A stretch of DNA of 45,906 bases from a virus (IMGVR_UViG_3300013767_000014:1-45906); one strand, 5' to 3'. Numbered from the stretch's first letter, positions 13,660 to 45,906 are shown. Made by a program: numbers and translations. Notes: a model not told the origin generated them from the sequence alone.

Positions 13660-13661
13660 GG

Positions 13662-16091: not shown

Positions 16092-16106
16092 TTTTCCCTC
16101 GAGAGT

Positions 16107-17092: not shown

Positions 17093-17094
17093 TT

Positions 17095-19481: not shown

Positions 19482-19496
19482 CCGTAAGGGGCTGTT

Positions 19497-26334: not shown

Positions 26335-26337
26335 TCA

Positions 26338-26583
26338 ATGACCGAAGAACTAACGCTCCAACGTGGCCTGGCCGCTGAGGAGCTCCTCAAAAACGAGGCG
26401 TTCATCACATGCGTGAACGACCTCTACAACATCTATTTCTCAGAGATCACCTCGAGCCCCCTCGACGCGAAAGAGCTGCGTGAAAACCGCTTCTTTCAAC
26501 TCCGCGGCCTCCAGGACATCACTGCAGAACTCCAGAGCTGGGTCCATGCAAAAGACCGGCTCCTTACCCCAACTGAAGAGTAA
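26338..26583 (+). CDS. Small head-module protein
   Basis: 81 aa between portal and scaffold; RGLAAEELLKNEAF...RE..F motif. Confidence 0.75.
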   Translation: MTEELTLQRGLAAEELLKNEAFITCVNDLYNIYFSEITSSPLDAKELRENRFFQLRGLQDITAELQSWVHAKDRLLTPTEE

Positions 26584-26588
26584 AACCT

Positions 26589-27620
26589 ATGCCTACCACT
26601 ACCCAACTGGGCGTGGACACGTCCCTGCCGACCATTCTCGAAACTGATTCGGACGCAGCGGATGCATTTATGTCTCGATGGAGCGATACGGACCCTGAGA
26701 AGGTATCCAAAGATCCTGAGGACGAAGACCTGACTGATGCCGACGACGACGAGCAACAGCAGGAGGCCAACGAGCCTGAACAAGACGAAGACGAAACAGA
26801 AGCGGACCCTGAAGAGGAATCACAGGAGACCGAAGACGAATCCGAGGAAGAGTCTGAAGAGGAAGAGCCCAAGGGCAAGTACCTCGATGACGAAGCCAAG
26901 GTGAAGCTTCGCGTTGACGATGAGGAGCTCGAGGTATCCGTCAAGGATCTGAAGCGACTGTACGGGCAAGAGAAGGCCCTGACCAAGAAATCGCAAGCTG
27001 TTGCCGAGCAACGCAAGGCTACCGAAGCTGCAAACCAACGAGCTGCAGCCCAGCTGGACCGCCTCCACAAGAAGGCCTCTGAACGCTGGGAACCCTATTC
27101 GAAGATCGACATGCTCGTCGCTTCGAAGCAGCTCGATGCAGAACAATTCGCAGCCCTACGCGCTGAAGCTCAAGCAGCTTACGACGACTATCGGTTCGTC
27201 ACACAGGAGGTTGATTCGTTCGTCAAGGCAGCGAATGAACAACGCCAGCAAGACCTGCAGGTCCAGGCTAAGGAAGCCATCAAGACCCTGCAGGACACCG
27301 TCCCAAATTGGTCGCAAGCCCTGTACGACGAGATCTGTGCCTACGCAGTAGACAAAGGCATGGACGCGAATGTCGTCCGGAGCATGGTCGATCCCACCGC
27401 ATTGCAGCTCATCCACAAAGCAATGCAATTCGACAAGGCCAAGACCGTGACCACGAAGAAGGTCGTGCAACAGCCCAAGAAGATCCTCAAGACCACCAAG
27501 GCAGTCACTGCGAACGACGCCAAGGTCGACAAGACATCGAAGGCCAAACAACGCCTGAAAGCCTCGGGTACCACCGAGGACGCAGCGGATCTCTTCATGG
27601 CTCGCTGGGCGGCTGATTAA
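26589..27620 (+). CDS. Capsid scaffolding protein
   Basis: Highly acidic N-terminal half, coiled coil, and basic C-terminus; lies before the capsid gene. Confidence 0.85.
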   Translation: MPTTTQLGVDTSLPTILETDSDAADAFMSRWSDTDPEKVSKDPEDEDLTDADDDEQQQEANEPEQDEDETEADPEEESQETEDESEEESEEEEPKGKYLDDEAKVKLRVDDEELEVSVKDLKRLYGQEKALTKKSQAVAEQRKATEAANQRAAAQLDRLHKKASERWEPYSKIDMLVASKQLDAEQFAALRAEAQAAYDDYRFVTQEVDSFVKAANEQRQQDLQVQAKEAIKTLQDTVPNWSQALYDEICAYAVDKGMDANVVRSMVDPTALQLIHKAMQFDKAKTVTTKKVVQQPKKILKTTKAVTANDAKVDKTSKAKQRLKASGTTEDAADLFMARWAAD

Positions 27621-27645
27621 ACCCTCTCAATTCTAAGGAAGCTCC

Positions 27646-28587
27646 ATGAGCGCAACTGCTTTTCAGACCTACGATCAGGTAGGTATCAAAGAAGATATCA
27701 GCGATATCATCAGCAACATCAGCCCGACCACGACCCCGTTCCAGTCGAGCATCAAGACCGAGAACGTCCACAACGTTCTGTTCCAGTGGCAGGAAGATGC
27801 GCTGGCAACTGTCGGTGTGAATGCTGCTGTTGAAGGTGCTGATGCCGTCAACAACACGCTGGTCCCGACCGTGATGCGTAGCAACTATACGCAGATCCTG
27901 ACGAAGACTGTCCAGGTGTCTAATACCGCTGACACGGTGTCGACTTACGGTCGAGCCAAAGAACTGGCCTATCAGCTCTCCAAGAAGGCTGCTGAACTTA
28001 AGCGTGAGCTTGAATACACGCTGATTGGTCACCAGGCTGATGCTGCTGTCGGTAACTCGACCACGGCTCGCAATATGGGCTCGGTGTGGGGTAAGGGTGC
28101 CTCGGGCGTTCAGACCATCGACGCATCGAGCACCGTCGACCACACGGCTACTCCGGTGGCCCTGGCTGAAAATGATGTGCTGACGGCCAACCAGAACCTG
28201 TATCAGAACGGTGGCGAGGCAACGATCTTTATGATTAAGCCTGCTGACTCGCTGATTGTGGCTGGTTTTACTGCTGCTGCAGGTCGCTATCGTACCTTTG
28301 ATGGTGCTTCGGATAAAACCGTTGTAAATGCGGTGGATCTCTATGTAAGTCCATTCGGCCAGCAGAAAGTTGTAATTAATCGTTTTATGAAGTCGAGCTG
28401 TGCTCTGCTTTATAACCCGGTTTATTGGAAATTGGCTACGCTGCGTCCGTGGACCCGTATTCCGCTGGCAGTGACCGGTGACGGCCACCGTGAGCAGATC
28501 GTTGGTGAATTCTCGCTGAAGCACACCAACTACAAGGCCTCGGGCTGCATTATCGGCCTGACTGGTACCAACCCGCTGGCACCGTAA
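27646..28587 (+). CDS. Major capsid protein (SU10/DUF5309-like)
   Basis: GIKEDISDII.NISPT.TPF, WQED.L, NYTQI..KTV.VS.T, ELKRELE and GEFSL motifs; strong codon bias. Confidence 0.92.
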   Translation: MSATAFQTYDQVGIKEDISDIISNISPTTTPFQSSIKTENVHNVLFQWQEDALATVGVNAAVEGADAVNNTLVPTVMRSNYTQILTKTVQVSNTADTVSTYGRAKELAYQLSKKAAELKRELEYTLIGHQADAAVGNSTTARNMGSVWGKGASGVQTIDASSTVDHTATPVALAENDVLTANQNLYQNGGEATIFMIKPADSLIVAGFTAAAGRYRTFDGASDKTVVNAVDLYVSPFGQQKVVINRFMKSSCALLYNPVYWKLATLRPWTRIPLAVTGDGHREQIVGEFSLKHTNYKASGCIIGLTGTNPLAP

Positions 28588-28656
28588 TGCTAGGGGCCCC
28601 ACGGGGCCTCTAATCCCCTCCTTGGGCCCGTTCGTGGCCCAACCTAATTCCTTTAC

Positions 28657-28696
28657 GCCCCTGTGGGATCCACTCTCATCCCATGGGGGCTTTTTC
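28657..28696 (+). terminator. Terminator after the capsid gene (third of three consecutive hairpins)
   Basis: GCCCCTGTGGGAT...ATCCCATGGGGGC followed by TTTTT. Confidence 0.75.
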
Positions 28697-28699
28697 GTT

Positions 28700-28993
28700 A
28701 TGACAAAGCTCAACGATATCAAGATCGACTTCGATGAAAACACCGATGGTCTGATCATCAAAAAAGAGCAGCTCATCCCCCACGCGTACCTAAAGCAGCT
28801 CCAAGAGCAGCGCCTCAATTCGGTCAATCAGCGTGAAGGGGAAATGATGCGTGTCGCATCCATCCCAGTCTGCATTGTCGAGAAGTGGGTGAAGGAAGGT
28901 TTCGACTTCTGGAATGAGTCGGCCCAAAAGATCCTCGCCAAGCTCAAGCACGAAAACCTTGAGTACTTCATCACGACTGCCAAGCAAATCTAA
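28700..28993 (+). CDS. Conserved-looking head-module hypothetical protein
   Basis: MTKLNDIKIDF...MRVASIPVCIVEKW; start re-called at ATG 28700. Confidence 0.75.
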   Translation: MTKLNDIKIDFDENTDGLIIKKEQLIPHAYLKQLQEQRLNSVNQREGEMMRVASIPVCIVEKWVKEGFDFWNESAQKILAKLKHENLEYFITTAKQI

Positions 28994-29625
28994 TGAACCT
29001 CTCCCAGATCCGTACTACGTTCCTCGCCATCCTGAACCGCAACGATTGCACTACGGACCTGGCGAATCAATTCATCACCATGGCCCAGACGCGTATTGAG
29101 CGAACGCTCCGCGTACCAGGCATGGAAAAGATGTCGATCACCACGGGTGACCCCTTGGTCCCCACGAATCAGCTGGTGATCCCCAGTGACTTCCTCGAGC
29201 TCAAGTACCTATTCACTCCGAATGAATGGGGAAGCCAGACGCTCATGGAACACAAGGACATCTACCACTTCTTCAACCTGCAGGGCAAGCCTCTGGGTAC
29301 TACTCCGCGCTACTACAGCCGCGTAGGTGCGTCCTACCAGATCACCCCAGTGCTCCCCTCAGGCCAAACGGCGACGATGGTCTATTACGGCTCCCAGCCA
29401 TCTCTGCTCGTTGACACCGACGAGAACTTCTTCTCTGACGTGGCCAGCGATCTGCTGATCTACGCCGCTCTCTCGTACGCCTGCGATTACTTCGTGGATG
29501 ACCGTACGGCTTCCTTCGAGTCTCGCTACGGGCAGCTCTACGGCGACCTCGAGACCCAAGGTCAACAGACTGACATGGGTCAGAGCGCTATGGCAATGGC
29601 CCCGGCGTACAACATGGACTACTAA
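28993..29625 (+). CDS. Head-tail adaptor protein
   Basis: LNR.D...FI.MAQ.RI.R.LR...P.DFLE...P.YY...LL.Y.AL pattern typical of podovirus adaptors. Confidence 0.8.
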   Translation: MNLSQIRTTFLAILNRNDCTTDLANQFITMAQTRIERTLRVPGMEKMSITTGDPLVPTNQLVIPSDFLELKYLFTPNEWGSQTLMEHKDIYHFFNLQGKPLGTTPRYYSRVGASYQITPVLPSGQTATMVYYGSQPSLLVDTDENFFSDVASDLLIYAALSYACDYFVDDRTASFESRYGQLYGDLETQGQQTDMGQSAMAMAPAYNMDY

Positions 29626-32081
29626 TGAGCACCGGCTTCTTTCAGTTTCCACAGGATACGAACACCGTAGAACCTGTGAGCAACCAGTCTGGGTTCTTCT
29701 ACGGTGAAGCTGTCCCGCCTGCGGCTGACTCCACTGAAGCGCTGATCTCCGACCTGACCTCCCAGGTACAACAGGTCACCACAGCGAACACCCAGGCCCA
29801 GGCTGCAGCCACAGCAGCAACATCCGCCGCATCTAACGCAGCCCTGGCGGAGACCAACGTCTCTACCCTGGCCCAGCAGGCCACCACGACCCTCAACCAG
29901 GCAAACACGGCGATTTCCCAGGCGAACACTGCGGTCGCTAATGCCAGTGCTGCCGTTGCCTCGACCAATGCTGCGGTCACGGCCACGGGTAACAGCCAGG
30001 CTGCTGCCGCAAGCTCGGCCTCAGCTGCAGCTGCAAGTCAAACTGCTGCCGCAGGCTCGGCATCCCCGGCCTCCTCGAGCCAGTCCGCAGCCGCCTCTAG
30101 TGCCTCCTCAGCTGCTGCTAATGCCACCTCGGTAGCTGCAGCTCTGGCGTCGATGAATGCGATCTGGTTGGGTGCCAAGACTGCGGATCCTACCCTCGAC
30201 AACAATGGCAATTCCCTGACCATCGGTGCCGAGTACCTGAACACCACCAGGAACCCTCCGACGATCCGTGTCTACACGTCCGGTGGATGGGCAGACCAGG
30301 ATCAGACAGCCGAGACTGCGAGCTCCAATGCGACCCTAGCGGCCAGCCAGGCATCGACCAGCGCCACAAACGCATCGAACAGTGCCAACGCAGCCGCGAC
30401 CAGCGCCACGAATGCGGCAAACAGCGCCTCAGCTGCAGCAACTAGCGCCTCCTCGGCATCGACCTCGAGCTCCTCGGCATCGACCAGCGCAACCAATGCG
30501 GCGAATAGCGCCTCATCTGCCGCAACAACTGCGGCGAATATCAACGCCCTTCTGAACCTGCCCATCACCTCCACGGCGATGACGCTGAACAACACTCAGT
30601 TCCTCAACGGGATCATTGAGTGTACCGGTGCGTTGACGGGCAATACCACGATCACGGTCCCTGCTACGTCGCATCCGTTCATGTTGGTCAACAACACCAC
30701 GGGTGCCTACACGCTGACCGTGCAGATGTCTGGTGGATCTCAGAGTGCCACGGTGGTCCAAGGGTACGCAGGTAACCTCTGCTGCGATGGTATCAACGGT
30801 GTCTATGCGGCCTCGTCGGCTGGTGGTAACGCCAACGCACAGCTGGTCAACACGACACCTACGGCAGGTACCACGTTCATCCCCTTCGCTCACGTCCCAG
30901 GTTTCGCCTGGCTGATGTTGCGCGGTGTGTTCCTGGTGATGGGTACCGACTACACGGACTCGTCTTCTGGCTTCACGCTACAGGGATTCTCTGCGGATGG
31001 TACCGAGTCGTTCCAGATCTTCTCGCTGAACACGGTCTCGATTGCCAACGCAATGACTGCGGCTAGTCCTGTGATTTCCTCAGGGCCTCTGCAGTTTGCC
31101 GATGGCAGTCAGCAGAGCACTGCACCGATGGGTCGGAACAGAATCATCAATGGTGCCTGTCAGGTTCAGGTGAGGCCATCTAGGGTTCACTCGGCTGCCG
31201 TTGCGGGGTACTCGGTCGTTGACCGTATGAACACTTCCAACCAGGCCTCAGGGCAGTTCACGCAGTCTGGTGGGACCATTACGTACCAAGGCGTCGTTTA
31301 CCCGGCTGTCGTGCAGCAGGTCAACACAGCTTGCACTAGCTTCTCTGGCGGTAACTATTGGTTTGGTGTTTACCAGATCATTGAAGGGTACAACTGCTAC
31401 GACTTGGTAAGTAAGCCAACCACGGTGTCGTTCCTGTTCAACGCAAGTCAGACGGGTACGTACCCTGTGTGCATCCGTGACAGTTCGAGTGCGTACTCTT
31501 ACGTAACCACGTTCAACTACACGAACTCTGGAGTCACGCAAAGGGTTGTGGTGAACATTCCTGCACCTCCTGCTGGAGCCACGTACCCGCGCACCAACGG
31601 CGTAGGCATGTCGGTGATCGTCGGCTTCCAGAACACCGGAACGTACCAAGCGCCTTCTATCAATGCGTGGAATGCTGGTAACTACCTTAGCGCCGCTGGG
31701 TGTGTCCAGTGGGGCCTTGTGGCTAACGCCTTCATCTCCGTTACGAATCTTCAGCTTGAAGCAGGGACCATTCAGAACCCTGTGTTTGAGGTGATCGACC
31801 TTGGTCTTGAGTACCTACGTTGTCAACGGTACTTCGAGACTGGTTGGTGGCGGATGATCTACAACGCATCAGTAACGGGCTATTGGGGTAGTACCACCAC
31901 CATCTACAAGGCGTCCAAACGCTCCACACCGGCAATCTCAGTCAACGTCACTGGGAACAATAACGGTACTTATCAGGCTGCTTACACAACCAGTGAATAC
32001 ATCATCGTTGCGTCTACTGCTTCAGCACCCACAGGCGCTGTGGACATGAGCGGTTCGTTCACGTCTGACTGCGATTTCTAA
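29625..32081 (+). CDS. Long tail fibre protein
   Basis: Ala/Ser-rich coiled-coil repeats, LGAK..DPTLDNNG motif, and a C-terminal GRNRIING...QLEAG...CQRYF domain. Confidence 0.85.
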   Translation: MSTGFFQFPQDTNTVEPVSNQSGFFYGEAVPPAADSTEALISDLTSQVQQVTTANTQAQAAATAATSAASNAALAETNVSTLAQQATTTLNQANTAISQANTAVANASAAVASTNAAVTATGNSQAAAASSASAAAASQTAAAGSASPASSSQSAAASSASSAAANATSVAAALASMNAIWLGAKTADPTLDNNGNSLTIGAEYLNTTRNPPTIRVYTSGGWADQDQTAETASSNATLAASQASTSATNASNSANAAATSATNAANSASAAATSASSASTSSSSASTSATNAANSASSAATTAANINALLNLPITSTAMTLNNTQFLNGIIECTGALTGNTTITVPATSHPFMLVNNTTGAYTLTVQMSGGSQSATVVQGYAGNLCCDGINGVYAASSAGGNANAQLVNTTPTAGTTFIPFAHVPGFAWLMLRGVFLVMGTDYTDSSSGFTLQGFSADGTESFQIFSLNTVSIANAMTAASPVISSGPLQFADGSQQSTAPMGRNRIINGACQVQVRPSRVHSAAVAGYSVVDRMNTSNQASGQFTQSGGTITYQGVVYPAVVQQVNTACTSFSGGNYWFGVYQIIEGYNCYDLVSKPTTVSFLFNASQTGTYPVCIRDSSSAYSYVTTFNYTNSGVTQRVVVNIPAPPAGATYPRTNGVGMSVIVGFQNTGTYQAPSINAWNAGNYLSAAGCVQWGLVANAFISVTNLQLEAGTIQNPVFEVIDLGLEYLRCQRYFETGWWRMIYNASVTGYWGSTTTIYKASKRSTPAISVNVTGNNNGTYQAAYTTSEYIIVASTASAPTGAVDMSGSFTSDCDF

Positions 32082-32093
32082 CTTAGGAGACCT

Positions 32094-33119
32094 ATGTCTT
32101 TGAATCAAACATTGGCACGGCTCTCCGACATTGGAGGCCCTGCTGGCGTTCCCTTTGCCAACCGCAATGCGTTCATTGATGGTGCCTTTGATAACTGGAC
32201 CTCCAGTGCAATGTCGATCACCGCCGCGAACGGCCAGACGTACCTCAACGCAACCATGTGGATGGGGTACACAGGTACAGGCGGCTCCGCAAACATCACC
32301 CGTGTAGATGCTAGGACAAACGGCATCGTCGGTGATAGCGCACCACGTAACTACTTGGTGTGGAACCAATCTGTCGCGTGTACAAGCTCAGGCTATTTCC
32401 TTCAGAAGCTTGAAGGTGCCCACAAGTTCGCGGGTAAGTCCGTGACCATCAGCATGAAGCTGTGGGTTGGCTCGGGGTCCATTACGATCCCTCGGATCAT
32501 GACTCAGCAGTACTTCGGTACTGGTGGTTCTCCGTCTGCTGTGAACGTGTTGGACACCCCTATCAACTGGGTGTTGACGACTAGCGCAAAGCGTTTCTCG
32601 TTCCGTATGGATATCCCTGCAGTCACTGGGAAAACCTTCGGCACCAACGGTGATGACTCGCTCTACGTGGGCATCTGGTTGCCTACTGGTGTCACGTACA
32701 ACATGGGCGTGATGGAAATGCAGGTCGAAGAGTGTAGCCCACGCAGCAGCTCGGACATCAACGGTAACGGGGGAGCCCCCACAGCTTTCGAGTATCGCGG
32801 CTATGAGGAGGAACTCCTGCGCCAGCTACGGTACTACGAGACAGCCTTTATCCCGCCCACGTACTACAACCTATCACCAGCTACGCCACTGATGGCTTAC
32901 ATGCAGGCCATTACATACCTTGTGCCTAAGCGTGGAAACGGGTCGGTGTCGTTCGCTGGTATTGGCTACTACAGCGGTGGCACACCAACCACAATGCCTG
33001 TGGGGAACATCGTCGTTGTTGGTCCTGGACCCAACGGAGTCACGCTCTACCTCAATGGTGGCATGACTAACTGTGCTGGCTGCTCTGGTGGTCAATACAC
33101 CTGTGACGCAAGACTATGA
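32094..33119 (+). CDS. Second tail fibre / receptor-binding protein
   Basis: NRNAFIDGAF...QVEE...TAFEYR...EL...RYYE, paralogous to the C-terminal domain of the upstream fibre. Confidence 0.75.
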   Translation: MSLNQTLARLSDIGGPAGVPFANRNAFIDGAFDNWTSSAMSITAANGQTYLNATMWMGYTGTGGSANITRVDARTNGIVGDSAPRNYLVWNQSVACTSSGYFLQKLEGAHKFAGKSVTISMKLWVGSGSITIPRIMTQQYFGTGGSPSAVNVLDTPINWVLTTSAKRFSFRMDIPAVTGKTFGTNGDDSLYVGIWLPTGVTYNMGVMEMQVEECSPRSSSDINGNGGAPTAFEYRGYEEELLRQLRYYETAFIPPTYYNLSPATPLMAYMQAITYLVPKRGNGSVSFAGIGYYSGGTPTTMPVGNIVVVGPGPNGVTLYLNGGMTNCAGCSGGQYTCDARL

Positions 33120-33541
33120 CAACTTTCAAACAACTACGGAATCTGGACGGCACGGTGTCTACCACCACTGTCCAGTACACCGATGACCAAGGGACAATCT
33201 GGACTGTCCCTCTGGGCTCAGGGAATCGTCTTGAGACCTTGATGGACGCCTGGATTGCCCAGGGGAACGCTGTGGTCCCCGCAGATCCTGTCCCTGTGGT
33301 CATCCCTCAGTCGGTCACGCCATTCCAAGCGAAAGCTGCGCTTCTCTCTGCAGGTTACATGCCCCAGGTGAATGCGCTGATGGCTGACCCTACAACCCCT
33401 CCGATGTACGTCCTCGCCTGGAACGAAGCTTCTGTCTTCAACCGAGAGTCTCCCACTGTATTGGCCCTAGCTGCGAAGCTTGGGATGACCTCGGCACAGC
33501 TCGACCAGCTCTTCACCCAGGCTGCGACCATCACAGCATAA
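33116..33541 (+). CDS. Tail fibre assembly/chaperone-like protein
   Basis: PQSVTPFQAKAALL...W..A..F.R..P....LA..LG....QLDQLF motif. Confidence 0.7.
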   Translation: MTTFKQLRNLDGTVSTTTVQYTDDQGTIWTVPLGSGNRLETLMDAWIAQGNAVVPADPVPVVIPQSVTPFQAKAALLSAGYMPQVNALMADPTTPPMYVLAWNEASVFNRESPTVLALAAKLGMTSAQLDQLFTQAATITA

Positions 33542-33553
33542 GAAGGAATCAAA

Positions 33554-34039
33554 ATGGCATGGCGTGAAATCGCTGCGGATCTCATCAAGGGATTCGAGAG
33601 CTGCCGCCTGAAGGCCTACCCTGACCCTGTCACTGGTGCAGCTCCCTGGACCATCGGCTATGGTGCTACGGGCCCTAACATCGGCCCAGGCACCGTATGG
33701 ACTCAGGTCCAGGCTGACTTCGAGCTCTCTCAGAAGATCGAAGAAATTGGTACGCTCATTGACAAGATTGTCACGGTCCCCCTCACCGACGAGGAGAAGG
33801 CTGCACTGTGTTCGTTTGTCTACAACTGTGGTGGTTCAGCATTACAACACAGCACACTGTTGTACAAGATAAACGCAGGTGATATTGAAGGGGCCGCTAA
33901 TGAGTTTCCAAGATGGGACAAGGCAGGAGGACATGAGATCGTAGGTCTCCTGAATCGTCGTCGGCAAGAGAGAGCTGAGTTTCTCCTGGGGGACAACCAG
34001 GGGGAGCTCGCGGGAAAGTCTCTGGGGGTCGCAACATGA
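33554..34039 (+). CDS. Endolysin, GH24 lysozyme
   Basis: FESCRLKAYPD...WTIGYG, ALCSFVYN, STLL and GLLNRR..E motifs. Confidence 0.95.
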   Translation: MAWREIAADLIKGFESCRLKAYPDPVTGAAPWTIGYGATGPNIGPGTVWTQVQADFELSQKIEEIGTLIDKIVTVPLTDEEKAALCSFVYNCGGSALQHSTLLYKINAGDIEGAANEFPRWDKAGGHEIVGLLNRRRQERAEFLLGDNQGELAGKSLGVAT

Positions 34040-34593
34040 ACTGGTCAGGCGTAGCCAACATGGCCAAGGAGCTGGCCCCTACCATCGCTACCTGTGTTGG
34101 TGGTCCCCTTGCAGGTACCGCAGTGACGGCCCTCGAGGGTGTGTTCAATCTCACCCCCAAGGTAACCTCTACGACCGACCAGCGTCTCGATGCTGTGGCT
34201 GAGGCAATGGCTGGAGCAACCCCAGATCAGCTTGCAGCTGTACGCAAGGCTGACCAGGACTTCCAGGCAAAGATGTCGGAGCTCGGCTTCAAGGACATCG
34301 AATCCCTAGCGGCCCTCGAGGTCCAGGATCTGGGATCCGCCAGGACGATGCAGTCGACTACCAGGTCGTGGGTGCCTCCGGTGCTCACCATACTGATCAC
34401 AGTGGGCTTCTTTGGCCTGGTGGCCACCCTCATGCTCGCTTCGGTCCCTGAGGCCAACAAGGCGATCATGTATTCCCTCATCGGCTCCCTGGGTACCGCA
34501 TGGATTGGCGTCGTCCACTTCTGGTTCGGTGACACCATGGCATCCACGGAGAAGACCAACATCATCGCTAAGGCACAGCCGGTAGACACATGA
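34036..34593 (+). CDS. Holin-like membrane protein
   Basis: APTIAT..GGPLAG N-terminus, SAR motif, two C-terminal transmembrane helices and FWFG; next to the endolysin. Confidence 0.7.
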   Translation: MNWSGVANMAKELAPTIATCVGGPLAGTAVTALEGVFNLTPKVTSTTDQRLDAVAEAMAGATPDQLAAVRKADQDFQAKMSELGFKDIESLAALEVQDLGSARTMQSTTRSWVPPVLTILITVGFFGLVATLMLASVPEANKAIMYSLIGSLGTAWIGVVHFWFGDTMASTEKTNIIAKAQPVDT

Positions 34594-34823
34594 CAATGGC
34601 CACAGACTGCGACAAGCGACTAGCTCACCTGGAGTTCCGGGCTGACGCTCACGACAAGGAGATCACGTCTCTGCGGGACTCCCAGCAACTCTTCAGCAAG
34701 AGCCTCCAGGCTATCGAGCAAACTCTCCTTCAGATCAAATGGGCCCTCTACGGTGGTGGCCTGGTCTTCACGCTGAGTAACTTCGGCCTGAAGGACGTAC
34801 TCTTCAAATACCTCCTCCACTAA
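34590..34823 (+). CDS. Coiled-coil plus transmembrane protein (XhlA-like holin candidate)
   Basis: Coiled coil followed by the hydrophobic segment KWALYGGGLVF. Confidence 0.6.
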   Translation: MTMATDCDKRLAHLEFRADAHDKEITSLRDSQQLFSKSLQAIEQTLLQIKWALYGGGLVFTLSNFGLKDVLFKYLLH

Positions 34824-35197
34824 TGTCCGCATTCACTCCCTCGCTCAACCCGAACATTGGCAACCAGAACTTCTACCACAAGCTCGCTGCAGCTGGCACC
34901 AACGGTGCTCTGGTGAAGACTGGTGTGACCTCGGTCGGTTCCATCAACATCATCAACGCAGCTGCGTCTGCTCGGTACGTCAAGCTCTACAACAAAGCCA
35001 CGGCACCTGTGGTCGGTACTGATGTCCCTGTGAAGACCTTCATGGTCCCTGCAAGTGCCACAATCAGTCCGGAGCTCGGTGCAGCTGGTCTTCGTTTTAG
35101 CCTGGGTCTCGGTGTAGCAATTACCGGTGGCCTGGTCGACACGGATACCACAGCTGTAACGGCCAACGATGTCTGTCTAGACCTCACGTACGCGTAA
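34823..35197 (+). CDS. Small beta-rich protein, probably a virion component
   Basis: 124 aa, YVKLYNKATAP and GLRFSLGL motifs; codon usage of a highly expressed gene. Confidence 0.6.
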   Translation: MSAFTPSLNPNIGNQNFYHKLAAAGTNGALVKTGVTSVGSINIINAAASARYVKLYNKATAPVVGTDVPVKTFMVPASATISPELGAAGLRFSLGLGVAITGGLVDTDTTAVTANDVCLDLTYA

Positions 35198-37575: not shown

Positions 37576-37638
37576 ACAACCTCCTCTTGTATTGGGTTGT
37601 GTTGTTTCCAAATTTTGGATTCTAGGGGGCCAGTTAGT

Positions 37639-37797
37639 GAACGGCTGGAGTACCGCTAGCGTTCATCAGGTGACCGCCAAGGGCTGTGGGTATCCTGTGA
37701 GTAACCTGTGGACTCACTGTGGAAAACCGTTCACTTGACAAAACCTAGCGGTACTGCAGCCGTTCGCTAGAGGGGTTTAGCGGTACTCCAGCCGTTC
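37639..37797. other. Putative plasmid-type replication origin (iterons plus DnaA boxes)
   Basis: 21-bp repeat YTAGCGGTACTSCAGCCGTTC at 37745 and 37777, and inverted at 37639. TGTG-starting 9-mers at 37685, 37696, 37707 and 37718 resemble TGTGGATAA. Lies immediately downstream of the HTH initiator gene. Confidence 0.8.
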
Positions 37798-37815
37798 GAA
37801 ACAATACTTATAGAC

Positions 37816-38394
37816 TTAACCCTTGATACTCTTTAGTAGCTTAGGGCCAAGCGGAATCTGTGGATAAGCCTCGTCGGGAAGGCTGGGAACCTCCGAGGCA
37901 CGGATGGAGGCCTTCAGGGCACCAGCCGCTTCGTCCCAGGTGAATCCATCGCCAGGGATGATCTCGCAGTCTGCCCAGGCCTCTGGACCCTCTGTGCCCT
38001 CACTGACGGCTTCTGCGATCCCAGCGATCGTCTTTCGGATCGATAGGGGCACGTAATCGATCACGATGGTGCAGAGCACCCTCTCCCCGAGACGGACGTC
38101 CATGCGCTCGCGGGCGATGTAGGTGCTTGGCCGTTTCCCCTTCCCCTTCGAGAGAACTCGGAGCAGCTTGGCGTTCTCCAGGATCTCGACGCAGCTGTTG
38201 ACGGTCGTTTGGGAAACCCCAGCCATCTCTGCCAGGCGACGAGTGCCAGGCCACGCTTCCCCAGTCTCAAAATCGGCATGAGCCTTGATGGCTTGCCAGA
38301 TGCCAAAGGCATTCATCCCGATCTGCGCAGCCAGCCCAGAGGCGAACATATCGCGCTGCATGGTCTGGAAGCTCGTATCAACTTTTCCTTGCAT
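37816..38394 (-). CDS. Winged-HTH replication initiator (Rep) candidate
   Basis: HAD..TGEAWPG.RRLAEMAGVS..TV...V..LE...LL pattern of HTH_36-type initiators; adjacent to the iterons. Confidence 0.75.
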   Translation of the reverse strand: MQGKVDTSFQTMQRDMFASGLAAQIGMNAFGIWQAIKAHADFETGEAWPGTRRLAEMAGVSQTTVNSCVEILENAKLLRVLSKGKGKRPSTYIARERMDVRLGERVLCTIVIDYVPLSIRKTIAGIAEAVSEGTEGPEAWADCEIIPGDGFTWDEAAGALKASIRASEVPSLPDEAYPQIPLGPKLLKSIKG

Positions 38395-38435
38395 GGAAAC
38401 CCCCAAAAACGGCTAGCAAAGTGCAATGAAAATTA

Positions 38436-38939
38436 TCACAGGGCCCCCATCTCCTCGAGCATCTCATGGGCCATCTTCTTGGCTGCGCGATCAAGGAACA
38501 CCTGGATCGACTTGATGCCCCCACGGTTCTCCATGAGCCACTGGATTTGCAGGTAGAGCTCAGGGTCGATTTTGAAGTGGTAGCCCATCCGGTTCTGGTC
38601 CTGGAGCACCTGAGGGTTCTGCCAGGGAAACTTCGCGACACGGATGGCTTCCTCACGGGCAGCCCTCTGCAGCCTCTCAACCTCAGCCTGGGCCGCCGCC
38701 AGACGGTCTACAGTCGATTTTCCCGAGGCGGCCGGGGCAGGGGTAGCCTCAGGAGCCTCAGAGGGCTCTACGGGGCTCTGAGGGGCCTTCTGAGAGACTT
38801 TGGCCACAGGAGCGGGTTCCGGGGTAGTCACTTCTGCTGCAGGCCCTCCCACCGTCTGACTTGCGGGGGCGGGAGGCGGCGTCAGAAATTCGGCTGCGGC
38901 CTGGTCAAGCAGGTTCGGCTTCTTATTGCGGGTTGCCAT
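38436..38939 (-). CDS. ParG/ParB-like centromere-binding protein (C-terminal ribbon-helix-helix)
   Basis: Overlaps parA. It has a disordered Pro/Ala-rich N-terminus and C-terminal GYHFKIDPELYLQIQWL...SIQVFLDRAA. Start re-called at ATG 38939. Confidence 0.7.
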   Translation of the reverse strand: MATRNKKPNLLDQAAAEFLTPPPAPASQTVGGPAAEVTTPEPAPVAKVSQKAPQSPVEPSEAPEATPAPAASGKSTVDRLAAAQAEVERLQRAAREEAIRVAKFPWQNPQVLQDQNRMGYHFKIDPELYLQIQWLMENRGGIKSIQVFLDRAAKKMAHEMLEEMGAL

Positions 38940-39597
38940 GGCTGAAGAGCTCCTTAAAGAAAGTGTCCATCTCGTCGCGGGCCTTTTTGGTACTGTACTC
39001 GTACTCCAGAGCGCTCTGGCCCACTTGTGGAGCCTCCATGAATGCGTCACGCCCTTTGATCTCAATTGCCATCGTACTGTATTGTACAAGCTTGGACAAG
39101 AGTTGACGAGCCTCTGTAGCCTTGGTCGATCCCACATTGACCGAACACCTATTGAGCACTGCAAGAGCCTTCAGCTTCGGATTGAGCGTCCTGACGCCAT
39201 ACACCAGCGCATCCATAGGTGGCAGGGTGCGTGTGTCGAAGAAGGATGGCTGGCAGGGAGAGACCACCACATCGGAGATCATCAAGGCACTGCGGAGCTC
39301 GTTGTGTTCGGTACCAGGAGCGGTGTCGATCACCATGTCGTCGTACTCAGCTGCGTGACCCTGGAGCGCCTCAGCCAGATAGGTGGGTTCATCTGGGTCT
39401 GAATAGAGCGTGAAGGCCTTGAACTGCGGCAGATCCTTGTGTTTGTCACGCTTTGCTACAGCAGCGAACAATGCGCCTTGTCTGTCGGTATCCACTGCAA
39501 TCACCTTCCGTCCCATACAAGCCAGTGCAACAGCGGTATTGAAAGCCAGTGTGCTCTTGCCTGCTCCGCCCTTGGATGCTCCGAACGTGTAAATCAT
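38923..39597 (-). CDS. parA: ParA (type Ib / ParF-like) partition ATPase
   Basis: KGGAGKST deviant Walker A, VDTDRQG, VIDTAP and PCQPSFFD; 224 aa with no N-terminal HTH. Confidence 0.93.
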   Translation of the reverse strand: MIYTFGASKGGAGKSTLAFNTAVALACMGRKVIAVDTDRQGALFAAVAKRDKHKDLPQFKAFTLYSDPDEPTYLAEALQGHAAEYDDMVIDTAPGTEHNELRSALMISDVVVSPCQPSFFDTRTLPPMDALVYGVRTLNPKLKALAVLNRCSVNVGSTKATEARQLLSKLVQYSTMAIEIKGRDAFMEAPQVGQSALEYEYSTKKARDEMDTFFKELFSHGNPQ

Positions 39598-39615
39598 TAG
39601 ATGCTCCTGTGTTGT

Positions 39616-39795
39616 CTAAGGTTGTACAACTGTGGTGTATCGTACTACTTCACGGTGATTCTGTACAGCTTCGTGGTATACCCGAGCGGACATTGCGATC
39701 CCAACCATTCCATCCCAGGACACTGTTGTCTGGTAAAGGTTCCCATCGTGATACGTGGACACTTCAACATCACGGTCAAGCAAATCATGAAGCAT
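39616..39795 (-). CDS. Possible small hypothetical protein
   Basis: 59-aa ORF MLHDLLDRDVEV... with a weak RBS. Confidence 0.35.
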   Translation of the reverse strand: MLHDLLDRDVEVSTYHDGNLYQTTVSWDGMVGIAMSARVYHEAVQNHREVVRYTTVVQP

Positions 39796-39977
39796 TAAAA
39801 ACGACGACGCGGGGTACATACTCTGTCTCAGGAGCGGTTACTTGTTGTTACGGTGTGACGACCGGTAGGTGATTTTGTCTTCAGTCTGACACATTTGTTT
39901 TGCATCCGGAGACGTTTGTTTGACGTTTTGGGTCATTAGGGGAAACCTTATTGTCTCCCCCTTTGACAGCATGCTTA

Positions 39978-40772
39978 TTAACGCACTGCAGCAAGCAGCT
40001 CCTCGTCCGAGATGTGCGCATAGCGCATCGTCGTTTCGATCTTGCGGTGGCCCAGTTGTTTCTGTACCACTGCGATGTTGCCGGTGCGTGACAGGGTACG
40101 GGTTGCTGCGGTATGGCGCAGGGTGTGCAGGACGAAGTCATCGTCGCCCTCGAGGCCCATAGCAGCCTTCAGCTTCCCCCAGACCTGACGCAGCTTGTTC
40201 TTGTCCAGGTCGAACAGACCCTTGGCCAGCTCCTGCTCGGCACGGACGGAGAGGGGGACTGAACGAGCTTTGTCGGTCTTGTTGACCCACAGGCGGATCC
40301 AGGGGCCATCGATATCCTTGGCCTGGAGGTTCAGCAGCTCCCCACGGCGCATGCCGGTCTCGAGCAGGACGATCACGAACCGACGCACCTCGAGCTCACC
40401 CCAGGCCTCCAGGAGCTCCAGCATCTTGGTTTCCTCCTCAGGGGTCACCCAGCGGATACGACCAGCGGATTCCTTGGAGAAGGGCATCTTGGGCTTCTTG
40501 GCGAGCAGCTCACGCTCGTGGGCGTACTTAAGGATCGAGCTGATGTTGGCCAGCTTGCGGTTCATGGTGGCATCCGAGACGGTACCCTCCATCTCATCCA
40601 TGTACTTGTCGATGGTGAGAACGCTGATCTCGGCCACCAGGGTGTTCTCGCCCACGATCCCCACGAACTGCCAGGCGTTAGCGCAGGCGGTCTTCTCGTA
40701 TGCCAGGCCTTTCCACAGACGACGACTGGCGACCTGCACGAGCTGCTTCAGCGTCATATTCTTGTCCATCAT
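39978..40772 (-). CDS. Tyrosine recombinase (integrase/resolvase)
   Basis: TGMRRGELL, K, HTLRHT and LGH...TTMRY catalytic residues; 264 aa, too short for an arm-binding domain. Confidence 0.93.
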   Translation of the reverse strand: MMDKNMTLKQLVQVASRRLWKGLAYEKTACANAWQFVGIVGENTLVAEISVLTIDKYMDEMEGTVSDATMNRKLANISSILKYAHERELLAKKPKMPFSKESAGRIRWVTPEEETKMLELLEAWGELEVRRFVIVLLETGMRRGELLNLQAKDIDGPWIRLWVNKTDKARSVPLSVRAEQELAKGLFDLDKNKLRQVWGKLKAAMGLEGDDDFVLHTLRHTAATRTLSRTGNIAVVQKQLGHRKIETTMRYAHISDEELLAAVR

Positions 40773-41038: not shown

Positions 41039-41266
41039 TCAGTCTATCTTCGAGAAGTACGATGCAGGTTGATCCACATGCTCCCCGTCAACATAGACCT
41101 GGGGCACACTGCGGTGTCCTGAAGCCAACAGAAAGAACTTGGCTGTCTGATCCTGGTCGATGTTACGCTCTTCGAACTCGATACCATTGGACTTCAGTGT
41201 GTGCTTCAGGATGACGCAGGCAGGGCAATTGTTCTTGCTATAAACCTGTACTGTCTTGGATGTCAT
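41039..41266 (-). CDS. Glutaredoxin / NrdH-like redoxin
   Basis: YSKNNCPAC and RSVPQVYVDG motifs. Confidence 0.9.
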   Translation of the reverse strand: MTSKTVQVYSKNNCPACVILKHTLKSNGIEFEERNIDQDQTAKFFLLASGHRSVPQVYVDGEHVDQPASYFSKID

Positions 41267-41284
41267 AATGTTCCTTATGTTAAA

Positions 41285-41689
41285 TCAGTAGTAGTCGTAG
41301 TCCCACCAGGCGAACGGGTCGTAGTAGTAGAACGACCAGCAGCCACCACACATCACCAGGATGAACAGAACCATCACCAGGTAGAAGCCTGAGTGGTCCT
41401 CGTGATATATCACCGGCTCTGCGGGAGCCATCTGTCCATCAGCCGGGACCACCACAGAGGGGGACACCACAGGGACGATGGGGACAATAGGTGGGCGGAC
41501 GACAACCACAGGGCGAGGGGTGTAGATCGGGCGTGGGACCACAACTACACGCGGGGCTGAATACATCGGACGCGGTGCAACGTAGGCCCGTGGGGCACTG
41601 TAGGCCCGAGCCACGATCACAGCTTCTGCCTGGGTCGCAAACATCCCTGCCAGGCACAGCAGCAGTACAGCAAACAGTTTCTTGATCAT
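41285..41689 (-). CDS. Exported Pro/Val-rich membrane-anchored protein
   Basis: Signal peptide ending AEA, APR/PRP repeats, C-terminal transmembrane helix and Tyr/Trp-rich tail. Confidence 0.7.
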   Translation of the reverse strand: MIKKLFAVLLLCLAGMFATQAEAVIVARAYSAPRAYVAPRPMYSAPRVVVVPRPIYTPRPVVVVRPPIVPIVPVVSPSVVVPADGQMAPAEPVIYHEDHSGFYLVMVLFILVMCGGCWSFYYYDPFAWWDYDYY

Positions 41690-42242: not shown

Positions 42243-42580
42243 TTCTTCGTTCGTTTGTCGATCTCGCGCTGGATGTACCAGGCGGCTTTCTTGAGATCCT
42301 CGATGGCGTCCTGCTTCAGGTCGCAGCGCCACACGTATTTGATTGCGTTGCCCAGGTTGAATCCCATGTGTTCGGTCACCTGGATGCACTCGATGCCCGA
42401 GGGATGAGCTGTGTAGTGGAGTGGGTGCTCGATAGGATCTGGTGTTCCAGGGGCCTTACCTGTTGCAAGTACCTGGGCCATCAAAGGCGTCAGAGAGGCG
42501 TTGGTCAGCATCTCCTGCGTCTGCGGGAGCATTCGCGGCACTACTGCAGCGGTGGTGTCATTGGTAACTAGGGCGTCCAT
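42239..42580 (-). CDS. DUF3310 / T7 gp1.7-like nucleotide kinase domain protein
   Basis: HPLHY...GIECI...FNLGNAIKYVWR...K...EDLKKAAWY motif. Confidence 0.88.
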   Translation of the reverse strand: MDALVTNDTTAAVVPRMLPQTQEMLTNASLTPLMAQVLATGKAPGTPDPIEHPLHYTAHPSGIECIQVTEHMGFNLGNAIKYVWRCDLKQDAIEDLKKAAWYIQREIDKRTKK

Positions 42581-43290
42581 AGTCGTGGTTGTTCGTTGTC
42601 AAAATCCCAGTCTTCAGCTCGGAGAATGCGAGCCATGCGGGCGTTCAGAATTGCGTCTTCGTCGGTGAGACCAGCCTTGATGTAAGCCTGGCGTACGGTC
42701 TCCCATACAGCCCCATGCTTCTTCAGGAGAGCTTCAGCACCCTTAGGGCCGATACCTGGCACACCACCGTAGCCATCCGTGGCATCACCCATCAGGGCCT
42801 GCTTGAGGAACATCCAGTTGGCGTCGCCTTCGGAGCTGTAGCACCACTGGCCCTCGAGCTTCTGGTTGAGGTGGAACATCTGGCCAGGGATCGTCAAGAG
42901 ATCCTTGTCCATCGTGCAGGGGAAGGCCTTGTCCTTGAACTTGGTGGCCAGGATCCCCATGCAGTCATCGGCCTCGAGACCAGGCTTCTCAAAATATGGG
43001 TAGGTGTTCTTCGCCCATTGTTTCAAGCCACCATAGCCAACAGGCTTCCTGGACCGCTTGGATTTGTAGAGTGGGTTCAGGGCCCTGCGGAAGTTGCTGT
43101 CTCCCGTGAAGCAGAGCTTGAACTCGGTCATCCCAGCAGCCTGGCAGACCTTGTCGATCCACGCCTGGAACTTCTCCTTTGCCTTGTTCAGGTCCGTATA
43201 GATGCTCCAGGTGTCCTCGTCCCATTCGATCTCTGTCTCGGCTCCTGCAGCTGATGCGTAGCACGTAATGTCAGCGTCGATCAGGAGCAT
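42568..43290 (-). CDS. 5'-3' exonuclease (T7 gp6-like)
   Basis: LLIDAD, NFR...YK..R, LEADD, DKDL, and GDATDGYGGVPGIG motifs. Confidence 0.95.
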   Translation of the reverse strand: MLLIDADITCYASAAGAETEIEWDEDTWSIYTDLNKAKEKFQAWIDKVCQAAGMTEFKLCFTGDSNFRRALNPLYKSKRSRKPVGYGGLKQWAKNTYPYFEKPGLEADDCMGILATKFKDKAFPCTMDKDLLTIPGQMFHLNQKLEGQWCYSSEGDANWMFLKQALMGDATDGYGGVPGIGPKGAEALLKKHGAVWETVRQAYIKAGLTDEDAILNARMARILRAEDWDFDNEQPRLWTP

Positions 43291-43523
43291 CAGACCAGCA
43301 CATCGTTGAGTGTGTACAGACCATCTTCCAGCGCTTCGATTAGCAGGTAGGTCTCGTCTTCGTCGTCCTGCCGATATGGGTCAACACACTCTGCAAAATG
43401 TGTGAACAGGGTGGACAGCTTCTGCTCATGCTCGCTTACTTCGATACCGTTGATGTTGACGCTGATATTCAGCATGTCACCGATCAGGTACGGGACTACT
43501 GTGACATTCAGTTTCTGATCCAT
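43290..43523 (-). CDS. Acidic hypothetical protein (77 aa)
   Basis: Start re-called at ATG 43523: MDQKLNVTVVPY... Confidence 0.6.
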   Translation of the reverse strand: MDQKLNVTVVPYLIGDMLNISVNINGIEVSEHEQKLSTLFTHFAECVDPYRQDDEDETYLLIEALEDGLYTLNDVLV

Positions 43524-43710
43524 GGATTTGCTCAAGCCCTTCTCGGGTGATGAACCACTGACGCCCAAAAACATCTCTGGACAGTCTGGTTGTGATGAAA
43601 CCAAGAGATGCCGCCATGGCAATCTCCTGGGCGTAGACGCGGGCGAAGTCGCCTTTCGTGAAGAAAGGGTTCGTCCAGGCACGTTGTAAGACTTCGTTAA
43701 TGGCATTCAT
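43477..43710 (-). CDS. T7 gp5.7-like protein
   Basis: VL......F....FAR..A..IA.AAS.GFIT...W.IT..G pattern; same position as T7 gene 5.7. Confidence 0.7.
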   Translation of the reverse strand: MNAINEVLQRAWTNPFFTKGDFARVYAQEIAMAASLGFITTRLSRDVFGRQWFITREGLEQIHGSETECHSSPVPDR

Positions 43711-44455
43711 AGGCCTCCAGCAAAGCTCTGCCGATTGCTTCAGGGATCTGTGGGACGACTGCGTTACCGCATTGCTTCAGCGTGTCCATCCCACGGGAAA
43801 ACCCATCGCCCACTCGTAGATACTCGGTATGGCATGGCCACGAAGGCCCGACTTGTACGCCAAGGTCGCCAAGCTGGGCGAGTGACGAGCGAGTTGTGAG
43901 CGGTATGGAACCCCTGTTGACGAGAGGTCTCTGTAGTCCCGAGCTGCGGGGGTAGGCAATGATCCAGACCCTGTCCCTCTGGTGAGGGGCGCCAACGGCT
44001 GCAGCGGGGATACAGTGCCATTCCGCGTCATACCCGATCTCATCAAGTGACCAGAGCACTTCGTCCAATCCTCTAGAGCGAAGGGCACTGACGTTTTCTG
44101 CGATGACGAACTGCGGCTGGAACTCTTTGATGATCCTGTGGAACTCCCACCAGAGACCACTTCGTGCCCCAGCAAGTCCAGCTCCTCGTCCTGCGAGTGA
44201 AATGTCTTGGCAAGGGAAGCCCCCACACACGACATTGATTCCTGTGATTCCATCAGACTCCAATTGTGTTTTTGTCACCAGTCGGACGTCCTCATAGATA
44301 GGAGTACTCGGCCAGTTCTTCTTCAAGACCGACCTAGCTTTCTCATCGATCTCTACGAACGCCGCTGTCTTCATTCCGGACCTCTCCAGCCCGAGGGAGA
44401 ACCCCCCGATTCCGCTGAAGAGATCCAGAACCTTCAGTTCATTAATGGCACTCAC
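43697..44455 (-). CDS. DNA cytosine-5 methyltransferase, large (alpha) polypeptide
   Basis: LDLFSGIGG (I), GGFPCQDIS (IV), ENV (VI), HQRDRVW (VIII) and GNAVVP (X); motif IX is absent in this frame. Start re-called at GTG 44455. Confidence 0.92.
   Translation of the reverse strand: MSAINELKVLDLFSGIGGFSLGLERSGMKTAAFVEIDEKARSVLKKNWPSTPIYEDVRLVTKTQLESDGITGINVVCGGFPCQDISLAGRGAGLAGARSGLWWEFHRIIKEFQPQFVIAENVSALRSRGLDEVLWSLDEIGYDAEWHCIPAAAVGAPHQRDRVWIIAYPRSSGLQRPLVNRGSIPLTTRSSLAQLGDLGVQVGPSWPCHTEYLRVGDGFSRGMDTLKQCGNAVVPQIPEAIGRALLEAYECH
43777..44253 (-). CDS. C5-methyltransferase small (beta) polypeptide, nested in an alternative frame
   Basis: LPTPAARDYRD (TRD-like) and EWAMGFPVGWT (motif IX), same strand and inside the alpha gene. 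Confidence 0.75.
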   Translation of the reverse strand: MESQESMSCVGASLAKTFHSQDEELDLLGHEVVSGGSSTGSSKSSSRSSSSQKTSVPFALEDWTKCSGHLMRSGMTRNGTVSPLQPLAPLTRGTGSGSLPTPAARDYRDLSSTGVPYRSQLARHSPSLATLAYKSGLRGHAIPSIYEWAMGFPVGWTR

Positions 44456-45906
44456 GCCAGTTGTCTCCAATCTTGAATTCAGCATCGATGGGGCATTTGA
44501 AATTGAAGAAAACACCGGCACGACCGGCACACTCGACCACCATCTTTCCGAACTCCTCCTCGAGGCCCTCACGGACACCCCACTGGAGCTCGTCATGGAT
44601 GTAGCCAAGCAGGACGAAGTCACCGTCCCAGCCATAACGGAGGCCGCGAAATTGGGCCTCACGGAAACATTCGATCATCCATTGCTTTGAGATGAGTGCG
44701 CCTGCACCCTGCAGGAGTAGATTGAGGGCACTGTGGGCACTACGTACGGACAGATAGCGACCATCCAGGCCGATGAGATGACCACGCTTGCACGAGTTCT
44801 CGACGGCTTTCTTTAGGTTCCCCAGGGCAGGCAACCCAGCGAAGAAACGTTGCTTCAGTTCCTTACCCAGGCGCCGCTTCTTGGCCTTGGATCCCTTGGG
44901 TGCGACGATGGATCCGATCTTCTCGTCTCCAGCTCCGTAGAGAAGGGCGTATATGAACGTCTTCGCGCTATCGCGAGTAGGTAGGCCTGCAGCCTTCTGG
45001 TTGACTGTGTGAATGTCACCATTCAGGACGATGTCTGCGTAGGCCCCTTTGTCCCATCTGGCCATAAAATGGGCGAGACAACGCAATTCGAGCCCGGATA
45101 GATCGGCACCGCATTGTCGGAAGCCATTGCGCACACCGAAAAGCCCTCGGCACTCAGGGCCCCACAGAGCTCGCACTGCAGGTACCTGGCCCAAGTTGGG
45201 TCTTGAATGCGAACAGCGACCGCTAACAGTTCCGCCGTTGTTCGTATGCCCGTGGATGTGCCCTTTTCGTGCATGCTTGAGCCACGCCTCATCTCCTTCT
45301 GCGAGCTGCCCAATTCGTTTCTCCAACAAGAAATACTGTGCGAGGATCTGCGCCTCTTCGTATGGGAGCTTGACCAGGATGTCTTCATCGACCTTGGCTT
45401 TGCCTTTCTCGGTGAACTCGGTCGGCTCCCAGCCGTACTTCATCTTCAGGCGCAGGGCGATCTGATCTCTCGAGCCAGGATTGAACTCGATGATCTTTGG
45501 CTTCAGTGGCTTGCCACGCTTACCCAGGCCTCTGTCGATCACCAGCGGTGGGAAGGTGTCCATCATCTTCTGACGGATTGCATCCCTCTCCACCGCAAGC
45601 TTCGCGTAGAGCTCCACAGCCTTTGCTTCATCGAAAGGCCAGCCTGACCATTCCATGAGGTTGCAGTAGTGCCGTACCTCGTGTTCCAGGTCGATGGCAC
45701 CCTGGGAGTACTCCAGACTGCTAAGGTGGTTCCACAGTGCCTCTGTAACGTCGACGTCCAGGTCACAGTAGTCACCCATCTCATCGGAGTACTCGAGCCA
45801 CTCAGTACCGTCGACCCATATGGCACCCTCGTTAGAGGCAATCCACTGGCCCTTGAACTGCTCGGCATAGTCACCCTTCTGCAGACGCCGGCGGTATCCC
45901 CAGGCC
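44442..45906 (-). CDS. DNA polymerase family A, polymerase part (5' end runs off the window)
   Basis: AWGYR, FNPGSRDQI, SGRCSHSRPNLGQVP, DLSGLELR, AKTFIYALLYGAG, ALNLLLQGAGA and HDE motifs. Confidence 0.97.
   Translation of the reverse strand, partial: AWGYRRRLQKGDYAEQFKGQWIASNEGAIWVDGTEWLEYSDEMGDYCDLDVDVTEALWNHLSSLEYSQGAIDLEHEVRHYCNLMEWSGWPFDEAKAVELYAKLAVERDAIRQKMMDTFPPLVIDRGLGKRGKPLKPKIIEFNPGSRDQIALRLKMKYGWEPTEFTEKGKAKVDEDILVKLPYEEAQILAQYFLLEKRIGQLAEGDEAWLKHARKGHIHGHTNNGGTVSGRCSHSRPNLGQVPAVRALWGPECRGLFGVRNGFRQCGADLSGLELRCLAHFMARWDKGAYADIVLNGDIHTVNQKAAGLPTRDSAKTFIYALLYGAGDEKIGSIVAPKGSKAKKRRLGKELKQRFFAGLPALGNLKKAVENSCKRGHLIGLDGRYLSVRSAHSALNLLLQGAGALISKQWMIECFREAQFRGLRYGWDGDFVLLGYIHDELQWGVREGLEEEFGKMVVECAGRAGVFFNFKCPIDAEFKIGDNWRECH

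Follow-up and report, generated by a model that had tools for sequence, protein, structure and literature searches.

The question raised by this locus is how a phage encoding a T7-type single-subunit RNA polymerase (RNAP) is maintained in its host when, in the place where some of its relatives carry an integrase, it carries genes of plasmid type. The phage is that of virus record IMGVR_UViG_3300013767_000014, a single record of 45,906 bases analysed over its whole length (hereafter the window). Drawing largely upon comparison with related genomes, we consider it quite probable that the window is a near-complete temperate T7-RNAP phage whose lysogeny would take the form of a low-copy circular plasmid instead of integration. 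The genes in question lie on the minus strand in the order tyrosine recombinase, ParA, a partner of 167 amino acids (aa) and a winged helix-turn-helix (wHTH) protein, here termed Rep, and are accompanied by a putative origin and a dif-like site:

39978..40772, minus strand: short tyrosine recombinase, 264 aa (PF00589, 2e-23), without the arm-binding domain, catalytic R-H-R-Y intact
38923..39597, minus strand: ParA, short Walker-type, type Ib/ParF-like, without an N-terminal HTH (phrog_164, 6e-36)
38436..38939, minus strand: partner, 167 aa, a Pro/Ala-rich N-terminal tail plus a coiled-coil/ribbon-helix-helix (RHH)-like domain of about 95 aa
37816..38394, minus strand: Rep, wHTH protein, 192 aa from ATG (196 from a TTG at 38406; HTH_36, 4e-6, over the cut-off)
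37639..37867, no strand assigned: putative origin, with repeats, AT-rich stretch and DnaA boxes
37639 (inverted), 37746 and 37778 (direct pair 32 bp apart): the three copies of a 20-bp repeat in the origin
37684-37727: four DnaA-like boxes of the origin, at 11-bp spacing
37798-37840: AT-rich stretch of the origin, 67%
37859-37867: DnaA box of the origin
41258..41285, plus strand: dif-like XerCD site, overlapping the glutaredoxin start

The earlier note had placed ParA, a wHTH initiator and a repeat/DnaA-box origin in a row, and the genes, the three repeats and the boxes were all confirmed. None of 100 shuffles reached three copies of the 20-bp repeat. Exact DnaA-box matches number four in the window, two of them in the origin (37718 and 37859); such boxes are not enriched window-wide (27 found with up to one mismatch, vs 42.6 expected). 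The assignment of ParA is clear, with further matches to NF041546 (3e-36, below cut-off) and to ParF 4dzz (5e-8). No centromere was found.

The plasmid-prophage reading is much strengthened by the exchange of this cassette for an integrase in related phages and by the plasmid contexts in which Rep is found. In three relatives (G007, L152 and G414) an integrase of 430-490 aa with DUF6538 stands in place of ParA, Rep and origin, and a 14-bp core beside it is present, among 179 loci, only in these three. In 10 of the 11 host loci checked, this core coincides with the 3' end of tRNA-Leu(CAG); it was found in none of four metagenome-assembled genomes (MAGs), then in 13 of 61 order-level genomes (G040 in the tally only). 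On contig G414:C46 the core occurs twice, at 2337 after a host transporter gene and at 47029 as the end of an intact tRNA-Leu, and between the two copies lie the whole phage and then the integrase. This is an integrated prophage, in a genome of 8.3 Mb from the same order as a Polaromonas MAG (Burkholderiales), and the phage family is temperate. Its hosts are likely Burkholderiaceae, since contigs of more than 100 kb assigned by name to Burkholderia sp. DN3021 and B. vietnamiensis carry homologues of the partner domain, and the host of the window is probably a Burkholderiales bacterium. Both the family integrase and the 14-bp attachment (att) core are absent from the window. A tree of portal plus capsid, with 17 rows (13 of Rep type, 3 of integrase type and 1 outgroup; G002, G005, G010 and L116, being incompletely covered, were not included), shows the integrase members dispersed: at least three changes are needed and their monophyly is rejected (p-AU 1e-69), a result that speaks to the recurrence of the swap, not to its direction. 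The single slot at which the lysis and replication arms converge thus reads, across these genomes, as a lifestyle module holding either ParA-RHH-Rep-origin or integrase plus att core.

All 15 viral loci found via Rep were examined and 12 records were rebuilt; many of the virus records are neighbouring IMG/VR ids, and their habitats are not independent. Nine of the 15 loci are of the window's phage family and have recombinase, ParA, partner domain and Rep in the corresponding position. The remaining six are from other phages; five of these are annotated, all with podovirus-like tail and head genes and four of the five with an upstream ParA. RNAP, ParA and Rep occur together in this slot in 7 of the 12 rebuilt records (G001, which has terminal repeats, G002, G003, G005, G008, G009 and G013); G004 has ParA and Rep but no RNAP, G007 and G006 have no Rep, and G010 does not cover the slot. 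A distant RNAP relative, G006 (L160-L162), is classed as a provirus; an integrase lies at its edge, and it also has a repressor-like HTH_31 gene and an antirepressor. The 47.9-kb G011 (L173-L175) is a siphovirus with T7-type RNAP, phiKMV-like replication genes and a lambda-like tail, and its ParA-small gene-Rep arrangement (Rep 58%) places the cassette in a second lineage of RNAP phages. Between ParA and Rep most Rep-type relatives encode a further, ParG-like protein; in the window and G001, by contrast, ParA is followed directly by the core protein with a long N-terminal tail, and the sequence suggests that in the window this tailed partner likely doubles as the ParA adaptor. Integrating members, too, have the short recombinase and the C-terminal 95 residues of the partner, and have them within the prophage; both are therefore family core, and the view of the tyrosine recombinase as part of a plasmid cassette had to be given up. 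As a candidate integrase the 264-aa recombinase was likewise rejected, for in integrated G414 it is internal and the edge has another integrase; no conserved site for it was evident by eye around the gene in 12 members.

The second line of evidence concerns Rep, whose homologues number 578 and lie, among the 120 matches listed, mostly on contigs of 1-3 kb. Terminal repeats of at least 15 nt were present on 34 of 77 whole metagenome or MAG contigs, and of at least 30 nt on 33. The 33 Rep circles (L018-L098), which were found through Rep, span 1,335-9,342 bp, and apart from Rep no protein cluster is common to more than seven of them; two add only a relaxase (MobA/MobL or Mob_Pre) and one adds ParA and a resolvase. 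They amount to a family of cryptic circles, typically of 1.3-3 kb, with Rep as the principal gene. One circle of 9.3 kb (L063) consists of three tandem 3.1-kb units, a concatemer or an assembly artefact. A divergent Rep subtype occurs in a ParA-small gene-HTH operon on the complete isolate plasmids pA29BJ2 of Polaromonas and pRBH2-3 of Acinetobacter. By this context the wHTH protein would represent an unannotated plasmid initiator family. Its structural model has a single winged helix (WH) and a beta-rich C-terminal half; the best fold comparison (4pta, Z 7.6, rmsd 3.1, 88 aligned) is tied with generic wHTH proteins, and fold searches with Rep and the partner returned generic wHTH or nothing specific. 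No Rep_3 Pfam match was obtained in six homologues, the Rep profile had no match among PDB sequences, and the window Rep itself had no match among phages and a single weak one, to a Bacillus HTH protein, in PLSDB. The P1 plasmid prophage combines a Rep with iterons, DnaA boxes, a ParA system and dimer resolution, and the window's family differs from it in its quasi-palindromic 16-bp sites and type Ib-like partition; with the single WH of its model and its unannotated family, Rep is probably not a P1/N15-type protein. That single-WH architecture is as in RepA of pSK41/pTZ2162, and single-WH initiators are a recognised superclade (10.1101/2024.09.03.610885).

That Rep has a cognate origin is suggested by covariation. 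Most intact Rep genes adjoin about three 16-bp quasi-palindromes, an AT-rich stretch and a DnaA-like box. At least three repeat copies were called in 38 of 97 loci (23 sequences after de-duplication at 90%), the 59 loci with fewer than three downstream copies being left out; the automated finder missed the asymmetric repeat of the window, and its call for L034 is probably wrong. Within this set, similarity between half-sites rises with identity over the 8-residue recognition helix (partial rho 0.56, permutation p 2e-4, n=23) but not with identity over the remainder of Rep (0.02); of 181 sliding windows, the six that score highest all overlap the helix. As a prediction separate from the covariation test, at least five loci with the window's SQTTV helix (G005, G013, L115, L116 and L121) share its repeat type and layout, the G013 repeat being alike at 21 of 25 bases, counted by eye. 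G001 and G002, whose helix is different, carry GTTCA-N6-TGAAC repeats, and circles pair SAMTVKR with GTATC and SAATVKR with GTTTC. The repeats are likely the binding sites of Rep, as predicted from these sequences.

It is reasonable to postulate a cycle in which Rep would bind the three repeats via its recognition helix and, with host DnaA, open the AT-rich stretch for the host replisome, while ParA and the tailed partner would segregate the plasmid copies and host XerCD, acting at the dif-like site, would resolve dimers. The lytic cycle, once induced, would be run by the RNAP and T7-type replisome of the phage. By analogy, such a phage-plasmid may work like the cluster A mycobacteriophages, in which a parABS/RepA cassette is colinear with and replaces the integration cassette, its replication was demonstrated experimentally, cassettes are exchanged between related phages, and the prophage is extrachromosomal and of low copy number (PMC7157519). 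The likeness lies in a lysogeny module swapped within one colinear slot. The cluster A phages are actinobacterial, however, whereas the window has a likely Burkholderiales host, encodes a single-subunit RNAP and differs further in its Rep family, visible iterons, DnaA boxes and dif-like site.

The dif-like site merits separate comment. It is the top match in the window to a profile built from four non-RNAP phage sites, and the pattern, which was set after the site had been seen, occurs once in the window vs 0.04 expected and once or twice in four of five host-order genomes. It is present in the window, G001, G003 and G005, and with one mismatch in G013, and is absent from the integrase-type G007 and G414. 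Because it overlaps the start codon region of a gene, it may be a chance match.

Several observations weigh against a plasmid prophage. The dif-like site was found in none of the Rep-type G008, G009 and fragment G002. The partner has no match in Pfam, PHROG or NCBIfam, its model (a coil, then two helices) had no Foldseek match, and an hhalign comparison with the relatives' ParG-like proteins gave a probability of 14%; an open reading frame does stand beside ParA, as the earlier note held, but its further identification as an RHH protein is weakly supported by the model, and its C-terminal domain is core in integrating members. Neither a CI- nor a MarR-like repressor was recognised in the window. 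With one genome per species, no Rep-type members were seen in cells: close terminase matches came to 1 of 396, 1 of 69 (both G414, integrase type), 0 of 78 and 0 of 94 genomes, and a genome scan with the Rep alignment gave four MAG loci, none of the window's phage type (five genomes went unscored in the 396-genome terminase scan and the distant-Rep scan). The 33 of 77 contigs counted as circular lack a base-rate control for small circular contigs. Last, since five of six distant Rep hits in host genomes lie in chromosomal tRNA islands with an integrase, the Rep replicon also serves integrative elements, and Rep plus origin alone does not amount to a permanent plasmid. Five such small islands (L204-L207 and L209), each at a tRNA-Met or tRNA-Thr, combine an integrase with a distant Rep and an origin; defence-like cargo (CAP12 TIR, KAP NTPase, Beta protein) is present in some, and the islands are possible satellites.

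These islands lend some credence to a phage that integrates, at host dif through XerCD or through its short recombinase, with Rep and ParA merely keeping a transient excised circle; the presence of the dif-like site and the intact recombinase agree with this, and phage-plasmids with both states are mentioned in PMC7969092. We nevertheless regard it as unlikely. The recombinase is internal in the integrated prophage, dif-like sites accompany Rep-type and not integrase-type members, and the cassette replaces integrase and att core exactly. With respect to integrative mobile elements exploiting Xer (IMEX), the window has the dif-like site, and no integrated copy at a host dif was seen. The phage might instead be effectively lytic or pseudolysogenic, the Rep-origin priming early replication or a carrier state without stable lysogeny. 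The lack of a recognised repressor, the observation of Rep-type members on virus or metagenome contigs only and weak PHROG matches to phage replication-initiation families all point that way, yet the proposal is quite doubtful, as the family is temperate (G414 is integrated) and the phage encodes its own primase-helicase and polymerase, integrase-type members managing without Rep. ParA and dif-like sites, moreover, serve inheritance at division.

The cassette might also be a small plasmid that became co-integrated accidentally, or a misassembly such as a chimeric join at 37-40 kb; this concern draws on the frequency of the Rep family on tiny circles and on the overlap of two source contigs by just 25 nt, inside rep. 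We hold this to be very improbable. In the probable source run (a subsurface metagenome, and not independent) depth is even at 6.4-8.6 over 36.9-44.9 kb; one source contig covers 38341-45308, linking ParA to polymerase, and another 36568-38365, with no joints, and GC content at third codon positions (GC3) of the cassette resembles that of core genes. Several lineages have the cassette in the same slot, with Rep identities of 58-64%, different ParA types and two Rep subtypes, and this conserved synteny largely refutes such an origin. The cassette is real and not a chimera.

The plasmid-prophage reading is set within the following genome:

512..3986, minus strand: single-stranded DNA-binding protein (SSB), HTH_39 protein, ThyX and T7-type primase-helicase, by domain and profile matches
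4317..6836, minus strand: T7-type single-subunit RNAP (PF00940, 6e-94), motifs A and C found
12952..35197, plus strand: podovirus virion and lysis arm with SU10-type portal, major capsid and adaptor, converging on the cassette
42568..45906, minus strand: family A DNA polymerase (C-terminal part; N-terminal part at 1-308), C5 methylase and 5'-3' exonuclease

The full T7-style lytic replisome and RNAP claimed beforehand are thus in place (RNAP, SSB, primase-helicase, family A polymerase and exonuclease). Pfam matches of this arm include, besides PF00940, PF21268, PF21265 and PF00476; a pattern for RNAP motif B gave no match in the window RNAP, and the best named phages stand at 33-34%. The minus-strand replication arm and plus-strand virion/lysis arm converge near 35.2 kb, and the virion, packaging and lysis set is complete (terminase, portal, scaffold, capsid, tail, endolysin and a holin-like protein), with matches to the SU10 portal (1e-180), capsid (2e-78) and adaptor and a best named terminase at 40%. 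Members of the Autographiviridae also have a T7-type virion module and a one-directional genome. The window shares with them the single-subunit RNAP and T7-type replisome, but because its virion genes are SU10-type, with two convergent arms, it is not a true member. Joining the contig ends gives an open polymerase frame in which relatives carry about 60 more bases, so the record is near-complete and not closed. No tRNA or Rfam matches were found in the window. A class II ribonucleotide reductase gene (7337-9328) is transcribed away from RNAP, and Asp/Asn hydroxylase-like and GNAT genes, kept in relatives, lie inside the virion arm (16107-17092).

Two sets of possible regulatory sites were noted. 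Near-identical 21-bp sites at 4282-4302 (minus), 6852-6872 (minus) and 7006-7026 (plus) lie on either side of the RNAP gene; two are directed into RNAP and the genes of replication, the third towards the reductase. They are likely phage promoters or operators. No such site, at up to three mismatches, precedes the virion genes, so that they do not account for late transcription. Palindromic GTTGTACAAC-like sites occur at 7169, 11681, 12050, 39621 and 40867, and also at 33859 (six found vs 0.95 expected), upstream of early genes, ParA and recombinase, with similar sites in G003, G005, G007, G013 and G414; they are a candidate operator for the missing repressor.

With respect to known systems, temperate T7-like phages described so far, such as LUZ100, carry integrases, and phages of the LUZ100 type have a MarR-like regulator next to RNAP and a tRNA-Leu as integration remnant (PMC10134795). 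The window resembles LUZ100 in joining T7-type RNAP and replisome to a temperate phage and in the tie to tRNA-Leu, and differs in lacking MarR and in a lysogeny slot far from RNAP. The word 'plasmid' is absent from the available text of that paper, and neither 'T7-like' nor 'RNA polymerase' occurs in the available main text of PMC7969092, PMC12977533, PMC13230959 and PMC4436056. The earlier note recognised no described example of the combination, and indeed no paper describing a T7-RNAP phage-plasmid was found among the matches listed, most subscription papers being beyond reach; two such replicons, however, had already been catalogued. Vibrio panuliri pVPan1 (NZ_AP019656, L001), a circular 48-kb isolate replicon, encodes T7-type RNAP, primase-helicase and polymerase as well as a short tyrosine recombinase (31% to that of the window). 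Its partition gene is ParM and not ParA, there is no match to the window's Rep family, and the virion genes are unrelated. It has a one-mismatch dif-like site at 22445 and no recognisable Rep, and no text on it was found among the 20 of 73 matches listed. Together with Sphingobium pCFD-1-5, which has T7-type RNAP and no annotated partition gene, it forms rows of tyPPing Table S1, each a one-member phage-plasmid community in the part available. The combination is therefore catalogued but undescribed in the literature searched, as far as that was accessible. Acinetobacter pRBH2-3 (NZ_CP110465, L211/L212), a complete circular isolate plasmid of 75 kb and a catalogued phage-plasmid, is by annotation an N4-like phage (N4-gp56 capsid); it shares a ParA-small gene-HTH arrangement of the window's Rep family (E 2e-7 to the profile), but differs in its N4-like type and size, and its Rep is only about 37% identical to the divergent subtype. 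It encodes a 3,646-aa open reading frame, and no paper naming it was found among the matches listed.

What, then, remains of plasmid maintenance in a T7-type phage as first put forward is a replicon and partition module conserved in relatives, with a Rep that is probably not of P1/N15 type and a virion that is SU10-like. Phage lifestyles are largely judged by the integrase, and T7-RNAP phages are generally regarded as lytic unless an integrase marks them as integrating; if the window is a plasmid prophage, such phages could be temperate without one, and current Rep libraries would miss the replicon. The family offers a natural experiment, with near-identical virion genes and either lysogeny module, and with it one could test how cells cope with a T7-type polymerase in residence when no repressor is recognisable. 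With its matched variants of helix and iteron, the Rep family could yield small compatible replicons for Betaproteobacteria. We lean slightly towards a broader proposition, that this temperate T7-RNAP/SU10-capsid family of Burkholderiales, itself undescribed, flips repeatedly between tRNA-Leu integration and plasmid through exchange of one module, and that a widespread single-WH initiator, as yet unannotated, with a helix-iteron code has also made phage-plasmids of the Xp10-like RNAP siphovirus G011, non-RNAP podoviruses and an N4-like phage. If this is true, RNAP phages thought to be lytic would commonly live as plasmids.

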